IMG/VR virus record: IMGVR_UViG_3300032332_001787
Coordinates: 64,001-128,000 of that record
Source: a virus
Lineage: Duplodnaviria; Caudoviricetes
Length of the DNA: 64,000 nt
Direction: 5' to 3' (one strand)
In this document: in pieces, positions 15,323-30,472 of the stretch
How positions within the stretch are numbered: position 1 is the stretch's first letter
How the letters are laid out: the number at the start of each line of letters is the position of its first letter
Notes under the pieces: generated by a model
The model's database searches: none
Seen by the model: the letters and a program-made list of their open reading frames with translations, nothing else
What the model was told of the DNA's origin: nothing
Position numbers and translations under genes: made by a program

Positions 15323-15402
15323 GCTCCCGTGCCGGTGGTTCCCGGCAGTTACTCTTATAAGGTAATCCGAAAGGGGACTTGGTTCGATTCCAAGCGGGAG
15401 TA
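15323..15402 (+). tRNA. tRNA-Ile(UAU), atypical; CCA not encoded
   Basis: acceptor GCTCCCG/CGGGAGT; anticodon arm TTACT-CTTATAA-GGTAA (TAT at 15356-15358); T arm CTTGG-TTCGATT-CCAAG. Confidence 0.85.
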
Positions 15403-15427: not shown

Positions 15428-15637
15428 ATGAGACTGCAACCACTAACAGTTATTTTTGCAGGATTATTCCTAACATCATTAGGATTTAATTTTCTTCTCT
15501 ATTCAGATATTCAAAGACTCAAAAAGCTGGACAACAAACCAGCTAGGATTATTATAGAAAGACAACCAGAAATTCATATTAAACCAGAAGTTTGGGGGTA
15601 TACTAAAGAACGGGCGATTCCTGGTATCGACAGGTAA
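15428..15637 (+). CDS. small membrane-anchored protein overlapping tmRNA 5' end
   Basis: N-terminal TM helix; last ~26 nt overlap tmRNA. Confidence 0.55.
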   Translation: MRLQPLTVIFAGLFLTSLGFNFLLYSDIQRLKKLDNKPARIIIERQPEIHIKPEVWGYTKERAIPGIDR

Positions 15638-15965
15638 AAAGAAATATAAATTGCATTGACTGGTTGATCGACCGGCCAGTATAAAAGTCGATTAAAAAAT
15701 GTTAATTGGCGAAGTTTCAACTCTCGCTCTCGCTGCCTAATTAGTTAGGTAATGAGTGGGGCGACATGAGCCTTATTACCAAATCATGATGACTCCGATA
15801 ATCGGATATGGAAGTCTAACCAGACATAAATAGGAATGATGATTGTACTCAATCTGACGCAGATAATTCTGATAGCTTTGTTATTTGTGTGATAACAAGT
15901 AACTAACAATGTAGAAGTTTATATAGACGTTTACACTGGACGGGGTTCGATTCCCCAATCGTCCA
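15612..15965 (+). ncRNA. ssrA: tmRNA (transfer-messenger RNA), tag (A)GEVSTLALAA
   Basis: 5' GGGCGAT pairs with 3' ATCGTCC with G3.U70; T loop TTCGATT; pk1 ACTGG/CCAGT and ATCGAC/GTCGAT; tag ORF 15708-15740 ends LALAA*. Confidence 0.93.
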
Positions 15966-15974
15966 CTTAATATT

Positions 15975-25491: not shown

Positions 25492-28173
25492 ATGAAGTTG
25501 GCAGATAGGACGATTGAGACTCACAGCGTTGGAGTTGCAAGCAGGAATCAGTTTAATATTGCTCAGACGAGCAAAATGTTTAAAATCCTTTCAGACTCTC
25601 TTTATTCTGATAAGGTTATGGCTGCAATTCGTGAGCTTTCTACTAATGCTTATGATAGTCATATCTCTGCCGGGAATAAGAACCCCTTTAAGGTGACTTT
25701 GCCCACTGCTGCTAATCCCACTTTTGTGGTGAGAGATTATGGTACTGGTCTTAGTCAGGCCGATATGGAGGACTTGTACACAACCTATGGAGCATCCAAC
25801 AAGAATGATAGTAATGATTTTGTTGGTTGCCTTGGTCTAGGGTCTAAGAGTCCGTTTGCCTATACCAAAAGCTTCACTACTGCATCATATTATAACGGTA
25901 AGAAGTATACCTATATTGCGGCGATTGATGAGAGTGGTGTTCCTACTCTGAATCTTTTTAATACTTCAGATACGTCTGAGCCTAATGGTCTTGAGATTAG
26001 TTTTGCTGTTAAGCAGCATGACTTTCAAGAATTTACGGATAAAGCTAAGAGAATCTTTCATTATTTCCGTATGAAACCCATCCTTGAGGGTGGTATCGGT
26101 AATAATCTTCAAGATCATAAGTATAGCAACACCAACATTATCATTAGTGGTGAAGGTTGGAGGGTTTGCCGACTCAACAATGATAATAGCTATTTTCCTA
26201 ATGGCTATCATCGAATTGATAGTGGTATCGTAGCTATCATGGGTAATATTGCTTATCCTGTTCAGGCCGCACAGATTGTTGGTCAAGAGAAGGATGAGAT
26301 GCCCGATCATATCCAGAAGTGGAATAGAGCTTTCCAGAAAGCAGATATTGATTCTTGGAAGAGCTTCGTGGGAGAGATTCTTAACTCTGGTCTTTATCTT
26401 GAGCTTGATTTTGGTATCGGTGAATTGGAGATGGATGTTTCCCGTGAAGGTTTGCAGTATACCAAGGATGTTATCAAGACTCTGCGTAAAAAGACTCAAG
26501 AAATTTATATGGAGATGAAGGAAGAATTCTCCAAGAAGATCAAATCTGCCCAGAATAAGGTAGAAGCAATTACTTCATACTATACTATGAATGAATTGGC
26601 TGGCGGCTGGGGTGTTGGTGCTACTTGGACTGATCCCAAGGGCAAAGACCATCCTATCAACTCTGGCAATGACTTGGAATATAAAATTCCTGCCGGTAAG
26701 AGTCTGTACGTTTTTAATTATAAGACTGCTGGCTATCGTTCTCGTCGCCAAGTTGCTATGACAGATAGAATCCATCACGAAACCCTTACTGGTAAAGGTT
26801 CCTATTATTGGAATAACCAGAAGAAGAAGGGTAAGATGAGTTTCTTTGTGTGTGATGTTGCTAGTGAAGAAAGTGCCAAGAAGATTCTTACAAGGTTTTG
26901 TAATGCGAACGATTGCTTTGCTTATCTGATGATCGACACTAAGGATCATACAAAAAGCAATGAGGGTTTTGATCAACTGATCGAAGATGTTGGTGCTGAA
27001 AATCTGCTAAAGGTTTCAGACTATAAGCATCTGACACAAAGTTCTGGCCCAAGAAAGTCTTACAGTAGAAATTCTAATGGTAGTGTCAGTGATCAAGATG
27101 TATTCTTTATCTATGGTCACGATAAGGACAGTAAGCAGATTACAAATCCTTATAATGATGCTACATATTTGAGAATTCTGTCAGAAGAACAGCTAGAGAA
27201 TTTTCTGGAACAAGATGAGATTGTTTATGTTCCCATGCTGAGATATGGAACTGAGTCTGAGTCTGGTTGTCCAGAGATTTGTAGCATTACTAGAACTCTC
27301 CAAGAAGATACTCTGAAGAGCATAGTCAAGGATTTGGTTGGCAATAGTAAGATTTATGCTATCAAAACAGCTTTCATTAAAAAGCTTGAGAAGGATGGTT
27401 ATAATCTTGTTAACTTCAATGATTTTTTGAAGCGTCAACTCAAAATTGTAACACAAAAGCACTTTAAGAATCTTGGTTCTATCAACAAGCTTGTTGAATA
27501 TTGCAAGAAGGATTATGCAACAGAGGAGAAGAATGGTGGGGGATACAGATATTATCAGCACGGAACAACGGATAAGCAGTTTATGTTTCATATTCTGAAT
27601 ATCTTTGGTCTGGATTATGATAAGTTTATTAACAACAAGACTCTTGTTGATTGCTTGAATAAAACTATCCTCACAGAGTTCTTTGCTAATACTGTTCATC
27701 TCAGTCCTTTTAATATTCCACGATTCAGTCAAACAGAATATCTTTCTCATATCTCTAGGCTTATGAAAGAGGCTGGGATTGAAGATGTTGACAGTAAAGA
27801 GATTCGTAATGCTAATTTGGCCTATAATACTTTGACACGTATGATTACTGATCATTTGTATTGTGTGCCAAATACAGACAAGGCAGAAGGTTTTGTCAAA
27901 ATTATTCGTGGAACTTCTACTCAAGATATTAAAACATGGAAAATCTCTGAGATTAGGGAAAAGATTAAGACTGAGGTAGATAAGAATCCTATGCTGAAAC
28001 TTATTATGGGCAATCATCAAGTCTCTGGTAATCTGGTAGATCTTAAGTCTAGTCAGAATCCTATTATCGAAGATCGTTCATATTATGGAAAACAGAGTAG
28101 GGATTGGGTTGAACAAATGAGCCAGGAAAATATTGACCTATTTAAGATTCAGTTGAGTAGTTTGATCAAGTAG
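25492..28173 (+). CDS. rIIA: rIIA-like protein (N-terminal GHKL/Hsp90-like ATPase)
   Basis: LSDSLYSDKVMAAIRELSTNAYD, VRDYGTGLS, GCLGLGSKSPFAYT; upstream of rIIB. Confidence 0.85.
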   Translation: MKLADRTIETHSVGVASRNQFNIAQTSKMFKILSDSLYSDKVMAAIRELSTNAYDSHISAGNKNPFKVTLPTAANPTFVVRDYGTGLSQADMEDLYTTYGASNKNDSNDFVGCLGLGSKSPFAYTKSFTTASYYNGKKYTYIAAIDESGVPTLNLFNTSDTSEPNGLEISFAVKQHDFQEFTDKAKRIFHYFRMKPILEGGIGNNLQDHKYSNTNIIISGEGWRVCRLNNDNSYFPNGYHRIDSGIVAIMGNIAYPVQAAQIVGQEKDEMPDHIQKWNRAFQKADIDSWKSFVGEILNSGLYLELDFGIGELEMDVSREGLQYTKDVIKTLRKKTQEIYMEMKEEFSKKIKSAQNKVEAITSYYTMNELAGGWGVGATWTDPKGKDHPINSGNDLEYKIPAGKSLYVFNYKTAGYRSRRQVAMTDRIHHETLTGKGSYYWNNQKKKGKMSFFVCDVASEESAKKILTRFCNANDCFAYLMIDTKDHTKSNEGFDQLIEDVGAENLLKVSDYKHLTQSSGPRKSYSRNSNGSVSDQDVFFIYGHDKDSKQITNPYNDATYLRILSEEQLENFLEQDEIVYVPMLRYGTESESGCPEICSITRTLQEDTLKSIVKDLVGNSKIYAIKTAFIKKLEKDGYNLVNFNDFLKRQLKIVTQKHFKNLGSINKLVEYCKKDYATEEKNGGGYRYYQHGTTDKQFMFHILNIFGLDYDKFINNKTLVDCLNKTILTEFFANTVHLSPFNIPRFSQTEYLSHISRLMKEAGIEDVDSKEIRNANLAYNTLTRMITDHLYCVPNTDKAEGFVKIIRGTSTQDIKTWKISEIREKIKTEVDKNPMLKLIMGNHQVSGNLVDLKSSQNPIIEDRSYYGKQSRDWVEQMSQENIDLFKIQLSSLIK

Positions 28174-28264: not shown

Positions 28265-29143
28265 ATGGCTGTTCCGTTTATGTTTGTGGATGGTAATTTG
28301 ACGCTGGTTCTTAATAACCAGAGTTATCAGGTATTGCCGGATCATATCAACTATAAGTTGATTCTGGAAAGACTTCCCTCTGCTACGGCAGAGGAATTGT
28401 TGGAAGTTGTTGATGTTCAAAAGGCTGTTGTCTCTTTCAGCGATGGTCTTGTGGAGATCAAGAATGGACAGGTTCTTTATGAAGGTGAGGAGGTTCATGG
28501 TAGTATTAGTAAGAGAATTTTGGAGTTTATGAGCAAGGGATTGCCATTCCAGCCCCTCGTCAATTTCCTGAATAATCTCATGGAAAATCCAAGTATGCAG
28601 AGTCAGAAGGAACTGTATGATTTCTTGGAACATGAGCATCTGCCTATCACTGAGGACGGTTTCTTCCTTGCTTATAAGGCTGTTCGTTCAGATTTTAAGG
28701 ATAAGTATAGGGGAGTTTTTGACAATAGGGTTGGTCAGGTCTGCACAATGCAACGAGCAAAGGTAGATGATGATCGTGGTCGTGGTTGTTCTAATGGACT
28801 TCATGCTGGAGCATTGAATTATGTTGCTGGTTATGGTAGTCTGGAAGCTGGCGACCGCATTGTGATCGTCAAGATTAATCCCAAGGATGTTGTCAGCGTC
28901 CCTAGTGATTGTAACTATGAAAAGCTCCGCACTTGTCGCTACGAAGTAGTTGGCGAGTATGAGGGTGAATTGCTCAAGCCTCTTTATAAGGCTGATTTTA
29001 GTCAGGACGATTATGACAATGATGAGGATGATTATCTGAATGATTATGATGAGAGTTATTGGGATCAGTTTGATGAAGAAGAAGAAGAAGAAGAAGATGA
29101 TAATGATGATGAAGATTATGACGATGAAGATGACCAGTATTGA
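28265..29143 (+). CDS. rIIB: rIIB-like protein
   Basis: LPITEDGFFLAYK, CSNGLHAG, VKINPKDVVSVPSDC, KLRTCRYEV; acidic tail. Confidence 0.88.
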   Translation: MAVPFMFVDGNLTLVLNNQSYQVLPDHINYKLILERLPSATAEELLEVVDVQKAVVSFSDGLVEIKNGQVLYEGEEVHGSISKRILEFMSKGLPFQPLVNFLNNLMENPSMQSQKELYDFLEHEHLPITEDGFFLAYKAVRSDFKDKYRGVFDNRVGQVCTMQRAKVDDDRGRGCSNGLHAGALNYVAGYGSLEAGDRIVIVKINPKDVVSVPSDCNYEKLRTCRYEVVGEYEGELLKPLYKADFSQDDYDNDEDDYLNDYDESYWDQFDEEEEEEEDDNDDEDYDDEDDQY

Positions 29144-29156
29144 TTCTTGATAGTCA

Positions 29157-29237
29157 AGGTGGTGTTTGGAACTTGTAAGATAGTACCTATATAGTTTTTA
29201 CTATCATACAATAACGGTTCGATTCCGTTACCATCTT
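29157..29237 (+). ncRNA. tRNA-like element resembling tmRNA tRNA-like domain
   Basis: 7-bp acceptor AGGTGGT/ACCATCT, stemless GG loop, 12-bp interrupted stem, T arm AACGG-TTCGATT-CCGTT. Confidence 0.6.
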
Positions 29238-29317
29238 TTAAGATATTGCTTTTGATGGTAGTGTTTACTGTCCCAATATCAAAAATGTAGATAGGAAGTT
29301 GGAAAAAGGAATAACAA

Positions 29318-30472
29318 ATGTTTAGCGATACTTTGACTTTTAATCCGTTCGATAAGACTCATAGTGCTATTGGTACAAAAGATCAGATTGCTTTGCGAAA
29401 TAAATTTTTTGATTCTTTTGGTGGTCAGCAGATTTTTTGCTATAATGGTGATCCTCGTAAGAAGATCAGTAGTATGAATCATACAGATCATCTTACCACT
29501 GTTGCTATTGCCAATGATAGTCAAGGTGCTGATGCTTACTTCTATGTTAATGGTGGACGTAAGCAATATGCTATTAGTAGAATTCGTGCTTGTTTTGTTG
29601 ATATGGATGCTGGACGAGATGATCAGGGTCGTTATTTTAAGCCCAGTATCGTCATGCAAAAGAAAAAGGAATTCTTGAACCAAATCAATAACTTTCCTGT
29701 AAAGCCAAGTTGGGTTGTTGATACTCGTAATGGTTATCAGTGCTATTGGATTCTAAACCAAAACAATATAAATCCTCACAAGACTTATTGGAATGGTATT
29801 CAAAAGAAACTAGTAAACCACTTTGGTGGTGATGCCCGAGCTATCAAGATTAATCAGATTTATAGAATCCCTTATACTTGGTGGAGGAAGGGTTGGGAAG
29901 GAAAACAACCTTATTTTACTAGTATTTTGTCGGGATCAACTGGTGATTGGGTAAATATTGAACAGCTTAAAGAAGCTCTTGACGGAGTTTCTGCTGTGGT
30001 TAATATTGTTGCTAATAAGACTAGTGACGAATGGTTTAAGGAATATGCTAAAGCTTATAAGAGATCCGATGTTACTGGAGTTCCGGTTTCAGTTAATGTT
30101 GCTGCAACTATTGCCAGTCAGATGAACTCTTTAAACCCTAACACCTATACCAATAGCACAGACGATATCAAGAAGTATAACAATTCTAAGTATGTTTATA
30201 CTAGTAGCGGCGCTCTGTTCAATAAGGCTTATGGTGATCCTACTCCAGTATCTCCTGTGGTTGAGGATGATACAGATTCTCTTGGGACGCTTCCTGCTGA
30301 CGCTGGAGGCGAGGATTTAGATCTTGACGGTTCACAGACCAAGCTTTTAAAGACGGTCGTGGAGTTCCTTAATCAAGTCTCAACGCCCCTCTACTTTAGC
30401 AACAATAGATTCCTATCTAATGCTGCTAAAGAACTAGCGTCTAAGATCAGTGACAAATTTTGTATCGGTTGA
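29318..30472 (+). CDS. RepB-like primase domain protein
   Basis: ACFVDMD, PSWVVDTRNGYQCYW, FGGD.RA...RIP. Confidence 0.7.
   Translation: MFSDTLTFNPFDKTHSAIGTKDQIALRNKFFDSFGGQQIFCYNGDPRKKISSMNHTDHLTTVAIANDSQGADAYFYVNGGRKQYAISRIRACFVDMDAGRDDQGRYFKPSIVMQKKKEFLNQINNFPVKPSWVVDTRNGYQCYWILNQNNINPHKTYWNGIQKKLVNHFGGDARAIKINQIYRIPYTWWRKGWEGKQPYFTSILSGSTGDWVNIEQLKEALDGVSAVVNIVANKTSDEWFKEYAKAYKRSDVTGVPVSVNVAATIASQMNSLNPNTYTNSTDDIKKYNNSKYVYTSSGALFNKAYGDPTPVSPVVEDDTDSLGTLPADAGGEDLDLDGSQTKLLKTVVEFLNQVSTPLYFSNNRFLSNAAKELASKISDKFCIG

Follow-up and report, generated by a model that had tools for sequence, protein, structure and literature searches.

A large, uncultured freshwater phage encodes, 13 nt past the stop codon of its rIIB gene, an 81-base tRNA-like RNA composed of an acceptor stem, a mini D hairpin, a long arm and a T arm. 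Purifying selection acts on this element, including the 13-nt loop of the long arm, and in relatives its helices are marked by compensatory changes. An earlier note on this DNA had proposed a tRNA-like RNA devoid of both a message domain and a usable anticodon, and this proposal is borne out, with the acceptor and the T arm as it described them. As for the function, we see about an even chance that the element might be a processing signal akin to the t-elements of plant mitochondria, one that would bound the rII message and release an 81-nt RNA. The stretch of DNA that we analysed at its full length of 64,000 nucleotides (the window, to which all positions refer unless another locus is named) represents bases 64001-128000 of the 230,097-bp IMG/VR phage record IMGVR_UViG_3300032332_001787.

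The element occupies positions 29156/7-29237 of the + strand. The 5' strand of its acceptor stem (29156..29163) pairs with 29230-29237: AGGTGGT at 29157-29163 and ACCATCT at 29230-29236 form 7 bp, A29156-T29237 is an optional eighth pair, and the pair in the place of 3:70 is G29159.T29234. Next comes the mini D hairpin of 3 bp, GUU-UGG-AAC (29164..29172, GTTTGGAAC), whose GG is invariant and probably packs against the T loop to build a tRNA elbow. The anticodon arm is replaced by a long arm (29173..29211), in which a lower helix of 5 bp (TTGTA 29173-29177 with TACAA 29207-29211) is separated by an A.A mismatch from an upper helix of 7 bp (GATAGTA 29179-29185 with TACTATC 29199-29205) that closes the 13-nt loop CCUAUAUAGUUUU (29186-29198), inside which lies the palindrome CUAUAUAG. 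The T arm, AACGG-UUCGAUU-CCGUU (29213..29229), is canonical, and GGTTCGATTCC at 29216-29226, flush with the acceptor strand, corresponds to the pseudouridine-arm motif GGTTCRANYCC of t-elements. The 3' end (29230..29239) consists of the acceptor strand 29230-29236, the discriminator U29237 and two more conserved U; CCA is not encoded. In other words, the element has the stacked acceptor stem (7 bp) and T stem (5 bp) of a canonical tRNA along with a UUCRANY T loop, whereas a 5+7-bp arm with a 13-nt loop takes the place of the usual anticodon arm, whose stem has 5 bp and whose 7-nt loop carries U33, the anticodon and purine 37. All helices listed by the earlier note are present in the sequence where it had placed them. 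The exception concerns the D region, GUUUGGAAC, which had been taken for stemless and is really a 3-bp hairpin: GUU/AAC covaries with GUC/GAC, GA/UC and CCGC/GCGG.

Folded as a single sequence, the 81 nt are modestly better than shuffles (z = -2.8). The window copy is called neither by ARAGORN at default settings nor by Rfam, be it at gathering thresholds or at E<=10, and the same programs do call a tRNA-Ile(UAU) at 15323-15402 and a tmRNA at 15612-15968 (72.7 bits) in the same window. For an isoleucine tRNA, the extra arm of this tRNA-Ile (+ strand, 80 nt) is unusually long. Two further candidate features were set aside. A sigma-70-like promoter inside the element (TTGGAA-18-TATAGT) matches a pattern that occurs no more often than expected by chance, and other clades have not retained it, and pairing among the three GAU(A/G)GU(A/C) copies in the leader, the arm and a second hairpin is contradicted by the arm, which changes independently of the other two.

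To address the conservation of the element, we scanned IMG/VR with the rIIB protein, which yielded 363 confirmed related stretches, 80 of which were kept; three DNA-pattern scans added more. In the structure-blind MAFFT alignment A1 (30 variants), 97.3% of cells pair and 14 of the 28 pairs show changes on both sides, a result matched by none of 500 shuffles. When the partners were slid by 1-3 columns as a control, pairing fell to 38-61%. RNAalifold recovered the same four helices unaided, and a model-based alignment of 50 members contains 20 compensatory pairs. Compensatory changes affect acceptor pair 7:66 (U-A with C-G), pairs 10:17 and 11:16 of the mini D hairpin, 8-9 pairs of the long arm and 3-4 of the 5 pairs of the T arm, where 99% of cells pair. 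Covariation in relatives, which the earlier note had named as a check, thus supports all four helices. The element stands downstream of rIIB in 49 of the 50 aligned family members. The exception is L119; in its sub-clade, rIIB and the element are separated by an inserted gene for a 210-aa HNH endonuclease. In L079 (3881-4513), and likewise in the group of L080, L081 and L119, an HNH-type endonuclease gene sits exactly in the rIIB-element spacer, and in L079 the element lies directly 3' of the stop of this gene. Cultured relatives were not found by blastn, and the nearest rIIB proteins are at most 43% identical. R1, a covariance model that we built from the element family, detected no element after rIIB in Xoo-sp13, PA5oct or LR756511 even with filters off. 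In PA5oct, which is a cultured but distant phage, an ordinary hairpin-plus-U-tract terminator is present at the corresponding site, L243:2251-2276 (AAAGGGAU...AUCCCUUUUUA).

Selection was measured as the mean pairwise difference among 45 distinct haplotypes of the window's clade. The 12-nt spacer preceding the element differs by 0.345, as much as the third codon positions of rIIB (0.284), and the 4 nt after the element differ by 0.246. Within the element the values drop to 0.065 for paired and 0.054 for unpaired positions; the 13-nt loop (29186-29198) has 0.057 against ~0.3 at neutral sites, and the T loop shows no variation (0). The element is therefore about five times less variable than adjacent neutral sites. 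The conserved block extends from ~29150-29156 through the three U's 3' of the acceptor strand. Since these limits coincide with the tRNA-like ends, what selection preserves is the tRNA-shaped RNA itself, in the sequence of its loop as well as in its pairing.

The element shares its strand with both neighbours and marks a gene boundary within a co-directional unit. Upstream are rIIA (25492-28173, +) and rIIB (28265..29143, +; PHROG 609/3803 RIIB, E 2.4e-71), the latter followed by the variable spacer, or 5' leader, at 29144..29155. The 174-nt gap between rIIB and the next gene houses all the helices listed. This next gene (29318..30472, +; 384 aa) is weakly RepB-primase-like: it matches PF16793 (RepB_primase) with E 0.023, below the family cut-off, and phrog_2478 with E 0.0023, and in its Atlas neighbour clusters RepB_primase or PriCT_1 occurs in 13-16% of members. 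Consequently, of the placement between rIIB and a primase gene given in the earlier note, the rIIB part stands firmly and the primase part has weak matches. Two lake/freshwater metatranscriptome runs gave contigs from relatives, which cover small shares of the stretch and leave 29079-29226 uncovered. It is also worth pointing out that very acidic, D/E/Y-rich sequences adjoin the tRNA-like elements of this phage: one is the C-terminal tail of rIIB (29000-29140), the other a 57-aa ORF (G000:C1:52640-52813) that precedes a second tRNA-like element described below. ORFs of the type 'MHEDYED...' lie directly 3' of the element in the phages with short forms and in some of clades B and C (L118, L071, L065 and others).

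A second hairpin follows the tRNA-like RNA (29242..29280, +), as had been noticed earlier, and it is real: 99.2% of cells pair and 7 pairs show compensatory change. It consists of two 7-bp helices separated by an internal loop, the outer one being GATATTG 29242-29248 with CAATATC 29274-29280, and is capped by the loop GUGUU. The hairpin is found only where the RepB-primase-like gene follows and is absent in L028, L078, L163 and the short forms. Judged by this distribution, it travels with the downstream gene rather than with the tRNA-like RNA, and it is a separate conserved 5'-UTR element of that gene, not a part of the tRNA-like RNA. A cut by RNase Z after 29237 would make the downstream message start four bases before the hairpin, which could then protect the monophosphorylated 5' end of this message.

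The family comprises hundreds of members in five structural grades. Clade A, that of the window, has the 5+7-bp arm with the loop described above. In clade A' the arm is similar, its loop is UCUAAUAGUUUG and the T stem has 6 bp. Clades B and C share a 6-bp stem with a covarying 26:44 pair and carry CUCU(A/G)G, followed in clade C by a small covarying hairpin and then A-N-A-C, and in clade B by a 19-20-nt loop ending in AUAC. In the short forms of ~60 nt (L118, L065, L072 and L073) the arm is absent and only a 13-nt linker is left; their D hairpin is CCGC-UGG-GCGG. L066 is an odd member. Across the family the acceptor stem, the GG hairpin, the T arm and the U-rich trailer are nearly constant, and it is the lower arm that is remodelled or absent. 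A motif Y-U-(A/G)-G recurs in the variable region of all clades but L066 and is followed in most by UU.

Some of these forms are still close to tRNA. The best relative in clade C, L190, reaches 28.3 bits with the Rfam tRNA model RF00005, just under the cut-off of 29, and scores lower with the models of the tmRNA clan. When its settings are relaxed, ARAGORN takes the forms of clades B and C for tRNA(CUA) or tRNA-Gln(CUG) into which 12-17 nt have been inserted after position 37. Taken together, these results indicate that the family descends from tRNA and not from tmRNA, and the sequences of clades B and C suggest a tRNA-Gln or amber-suppressor gene as their ancestor. The B/C forms at L057:3885-3970, L182:3522-3610 and L190:1585-1674 are near-canonical cloverleaves with a CUA/CUG anticodon-like triplet, G37 and an insertion. 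One might thus take the element for a tRNA pseudogene in decay, or else for a suppressor tRNA-CUA that still decodes and contains a small intron, and both the relaxed ARAGORN reads and the Rfam score of clade C would be in line with this. However, strong purifying selection and compensatory change show that it is not decaying, an anticodon loop is missing from the window's clade and the whole arm from the short forms, position 36 toggles between A and G in close relatives, and we know of no bacterial splicing route for inserts of only 12-17 nt. Nor do the loci show any sign of TAG recoding, for which a CUA suppressor would be needed: in most of them code 11 by itself gives a coding cover of 0.83-0.95, and reading TAG as sense gains no more than reading TGA or TAA as sense. 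For the window copy decay or decoding is largely refuted already, and we consider this explanation highly improbable. An attP site, or a piece copied from the end of a host tRNA, was considered and rejected as well: of 185,579 species genomes, none contains the 21-mer that covers T arm and acceptor, and the 5' half covaries too.

A G3.U70 pair is the determinant recognised by AlaRS, and the D region of a tmRNA TLD has no stem. On these grounds the earlier note had viewed the element in terms of a tmRNA TLD and AlaRS, a framing that is not supported. The G3.U70 pair is indeed present in the window copy, but it is not conserved across the family. With 7 bp counted from the T stem, clades A and A' have G.U at 3:70; single haplotypes of clade A, and the short forms, have A-U or G-C; and clade B has A.C, G.A or A.A. 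Clade C is divided among these three types. The caveat that A1-U72 and U73 are not those of an alanine acceptor was well placed: the phage's own tmRNA has the acceptor GGGCGAU/AUCGUCC followed by A, i.e. G1-C72, G3.U70 and A73. The search against the tRNA, tmRNA and Y-RNA models of Rfam, suggested as another check, left the window copy unmatched even at E<=10 (tmRNA clan RF00023: 28900-29600). A Y-RNA-like mimic of the YrlA kind is disfavoured as well, as there is no Rfam match and both ends of the RNA are in the acceptor stem and not in a Ro-binding stem. Since some relatives lack any arm, the element is unlikely to be a decoy for anticodon nucleases.

Nonetheless, a mimic of tmRNA in the form of an RNA reduced to the TLD, as in mycobacteriophage DS6A, deserves consideration. 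Such an RNA would bind SmpB, perhaps also AlaRS and EF-Tu, and thereby inhibit or retune trans-translation in the host. The architecture fits (acceptor, T arm, no anticodon), G3.U70 is found in this phage and its clade, and the phage already touches trans-translation by encoding the full tmRNA at 15612-15968. The precedent is that of DS6A: according to passages in PMC4131195 and PMC11915505, both citing Mao et al. 2009, this phage has a TLD-only RNA, and a molecule similar to it, chargeable or not, strongly inhibited tmRNA, perhaps by titrating SmpB. We could not locate this RNA in the DS6A genome, where it is unannotated in JN698994 and where ARAGORN, applied to the first 50 kb, gave only a tRNA-Lys. 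Against the mimic of tmRNA stand the variable 3:70 pair, the A1-U72 pair and U73 set against the end of the phage's own tmRNA, the covarying hairpin in the D region, and the tmRNA-clan models, which do not match the window copy while a sister clade matches tRNA best. In addition, R1 scores the 3' end of the tmRNA no better than an ordinary tRNA (16.2 bits against 13.1 bits for tRNA-Arg). The element shows none of the defining sequence features of a TLD, and we judge this mimicry unlikely. Neither an SmpB gene nor a CCA-adding enzyme was found in the phage, and a complete relative of 230,691 bp has the element and no tmRNA match. Next to the tmRNA, a 69-aa ORF with a hydrophobic helix (15428-15637, +) runs 26 nt into the tmRNA 5' end and has its stop inside the tmRNA; if RNase P cuts at that 5' end, the message of this ORF would lose its stop and become a substrate of trans-translation.

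Our preferred explanation is processing. The element is a tRNA-derived, anticodon-less 'top-half' tRNA mimic that would work like the t-elements and mascRNA, a proposal which in our estimate could equally well prove right or wrong. It would be co-transcribed with rIIA-rIIB, and host RNase P and RNase Z would recognise the 12-bp stack of acceptor and T stem and, with it, the elbow that arises where the T loop meets the GG of the mini D hairpin. RNase P would be expected to cut at 29156/29157 and RNase Z, or an equivalent 3' pathway, after U29237; CCA would presumably be added after the cuts, which would also release the ~81-nt RNA. Perhaps this RNA has a role of its own, as the conserved loop suggests. 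According to passages in PMC4919922 and PMC4810234, RNase P, RNase Z and the CCA-adding enzyme read the acceptor/T stack and the elbow, and RNase P is known to act on mRNAs, phage regulatory RNAs and MALAT1 (PMC4919922).

Several observations argue for this processing, besides the covariation of all four helices and the tRNA ancestry of the family. The parts that are nearly constant in the family are the features that these three enzymes need, and conservation starts and stops at the tRNA-like ends, with 0.345 and 0.246 in the flanks and 0.05-0.07 within. The genuine tRNA genes of the phage have no CCA and have T-rich trailers like that of the element. Moreover, the tRNA-Ile and tmRNA genes are wedged between ORFs of the same strand with tiny spacers, so this phage must already have polycistronic RNA processed in the manner of tRNA precursors. 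A second anticodon-less tRNA-like element, 82 nt long, lies outside the window just past the tRNA cluster (G000:C1:52819-52900, +). It is built of the acceptor GUGUGUG/CACACAC, the D-like hairpin UCUAG-GUGGGA-CUAGA and the T arm GUUGG-UUCAAAU-CCAAC. The way in which it exactly fills an intergenic gap, beginning 5 nt past the stop of the small acidic ORF and ending 3 nt before the next ATG, is again what processing would lead one to expect, and both the element and its spacing are kept in 7 relatives. A possible third, mini element of 55 nt (G000:C1:44627-44681 = L239:1502-1556, +), also outside the window, has a 7-bp acceptor with G.U at 3:70, a CUAGC-loop hairpin and a T arm with the loop UGCGAUU, and scores only 17 bits on R1. 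The ~870 nt upstream of it contain no long ORF and have a structured look, and Rfam finds nothing there.

There are also points against processing. A bare cutting signal leaves unexplained the conserved 13-nt loop (0.057) and the covarying inner hairpins of clade C. Several clades have mismatches near the top of the acceptor stem. As only about three such elements exist in 230 kb, they do not serve as general punctuation. Finally, once RNase P had cut, the rII message would have no obvious 3' structure to protect it.

Alternatively, the element might stay uncleaved as the 3' structure of the rII transcript, its closed acceptor helix and U run acting as a weak intrinsic terminator, as a block to 3' exonucleases, or as both. 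A run of 3-5 U directly follows the acceptor stem in almost all members, with a few odd ones breaking it; the T arm and tail were flagged as terminator-like by a scan; and Pseudomonas phage PA5oct has a plain hairpin with a U tract in the same place after rIIB. However, such a role has no need of an invariant T loop, a GG hairpin and a tRNA ruler of 12 bp, the genuine clustered tRNA genes have similar T-rich trailers, and the stem beside the U run is GC-poor. We regard a terminator or exonuclease block as quite improbable.

The conserved loop is better accommodated if what matters is the released RNA. Once excised and provided with CCA, it might persist as a stable tRNA-like small RNA acting in trans, either as a sponge or decoy for a host factor that reads tRNA acceptor ends or elbows (proposed candidates are end-modifying defence toxins, tRNA enzymes and EF-Tu) or as a scaffold for a partner of the loop; to us this appears doubtful. 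In a formulation that includes SmpB among the readers titrated, or has the RNA present its palindromic loop, a trans-acting phage factor is a minority possibility. Its effect would be to retune host translation or to blunt a defence directed at tRNA ends, or alternatively to allow dimerisation or partner binding through the loop. What speaks for a trans-acting RNA is purifying selection on the loop, the replacement of the palindrome CUAUAUAG by another palindrome, CUAAUUAG, in L038, the recurrence of Y-U-(A/G)-G in the variable region, and the presence of further anticodon-less tRNA-like genes in the phage, one of them beside the tRNA cluster. The species 1 and 2 RNAs of T4 (rnaC and rnaD) are similar in that they are stable, non-decoding, partly tRNA-like and belong to an rII-carrying phage; they differ in being located in the tRNA cluster and in being longer than our element. 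On the other hand, the loop is wholly different among clades and missing in the short forms, the palindrome switch comes from a single haplotype, and complementary targets of the 13-nt loop in the phage genome occur at chance level only: a search of the window and the genome for an antisense target found nothing beyond chance.

If processing is the right explanation, large freshwater phages borrow the tRNA-trimming enzymes of the host to cut their own polycistronic messages. Such a device is documented in plant mitochondria and for MALAT1, and our literature search found no paper on it as a conserved, gene-linked RNA family of phages. If instead the RNA acts in trans, it would form, together with the two other anticodon-less genes of this genome, a class of phage 'half-tRNA' regulators. 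Irrespective of this, the element accounts for a conserved 'empty' intergenic region downstream of rIIB, and its family is a ready candidate for a new RNA family entry. The family also offers a natural series from near-tRNA to a 60-nt minimal form, from which it can be read which parts of a tRNA survive the loss of decoding. A word of caution is that a single G.U pair is no ground for annotating a tmRNA fragment or an alanine tRNA.

Among known RNAs, canonical tRNA (RF00005) shares with the element the acceptor stem, the T arm and the GG of the D region, whereas the element has no 7-nt anticodon loop and its window copy is not matched by the model. The TLD-only tmRNA of DS6A and the CDS-less tmRNAs of organelles, as presented in passages of PMC4131195 and PMC11915505, share the acceptor and T arm and likewise have no decoding or message part; that of DS6A is also a small phage RNA. 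Compared with such TLDs, the G3.U70 pair of the window copy is only partly family-wide, and the element differs from a tmRNA TLD in that it has no tmRNA model match, U73, a hairpin as D region and tRNA ancestry. The MALAT1 transcript contains an embedded tRNA-like structure that is cut by RNase P and RNase Z, which sets the end of the upstream RNA and frees the small mascRNA (PMC4919922). The proposed likeness lies in the tRNA-like structure embedded in a longer transcript. Unlike the phage element, MALAT1 is eukaryotic and nuclear, and its upstream RNA is protected by a triple helix; no such structure precedes the element. In plant mitochondria, t-elements are cut by RNase P and RNase Z to form mRNA ends, and the excised piece receives C/A additions (Forner et al. 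2007, PMC1920247). Both t-elements and the phage element have a tRNA-like fold with an intact pseudouridine-arm motif GGTTCRANYCC and an acceptor-like stem, both are non-canonical in the remainder, and both are found at the boundaries of protein genes. The phage element differs from them in residing in a phage of a bacterial host and not in an organelle, in its cleavage being a prediction, in having an extra arm and loop under selection, and in belonging to a large syntenic family linked to rIIB.
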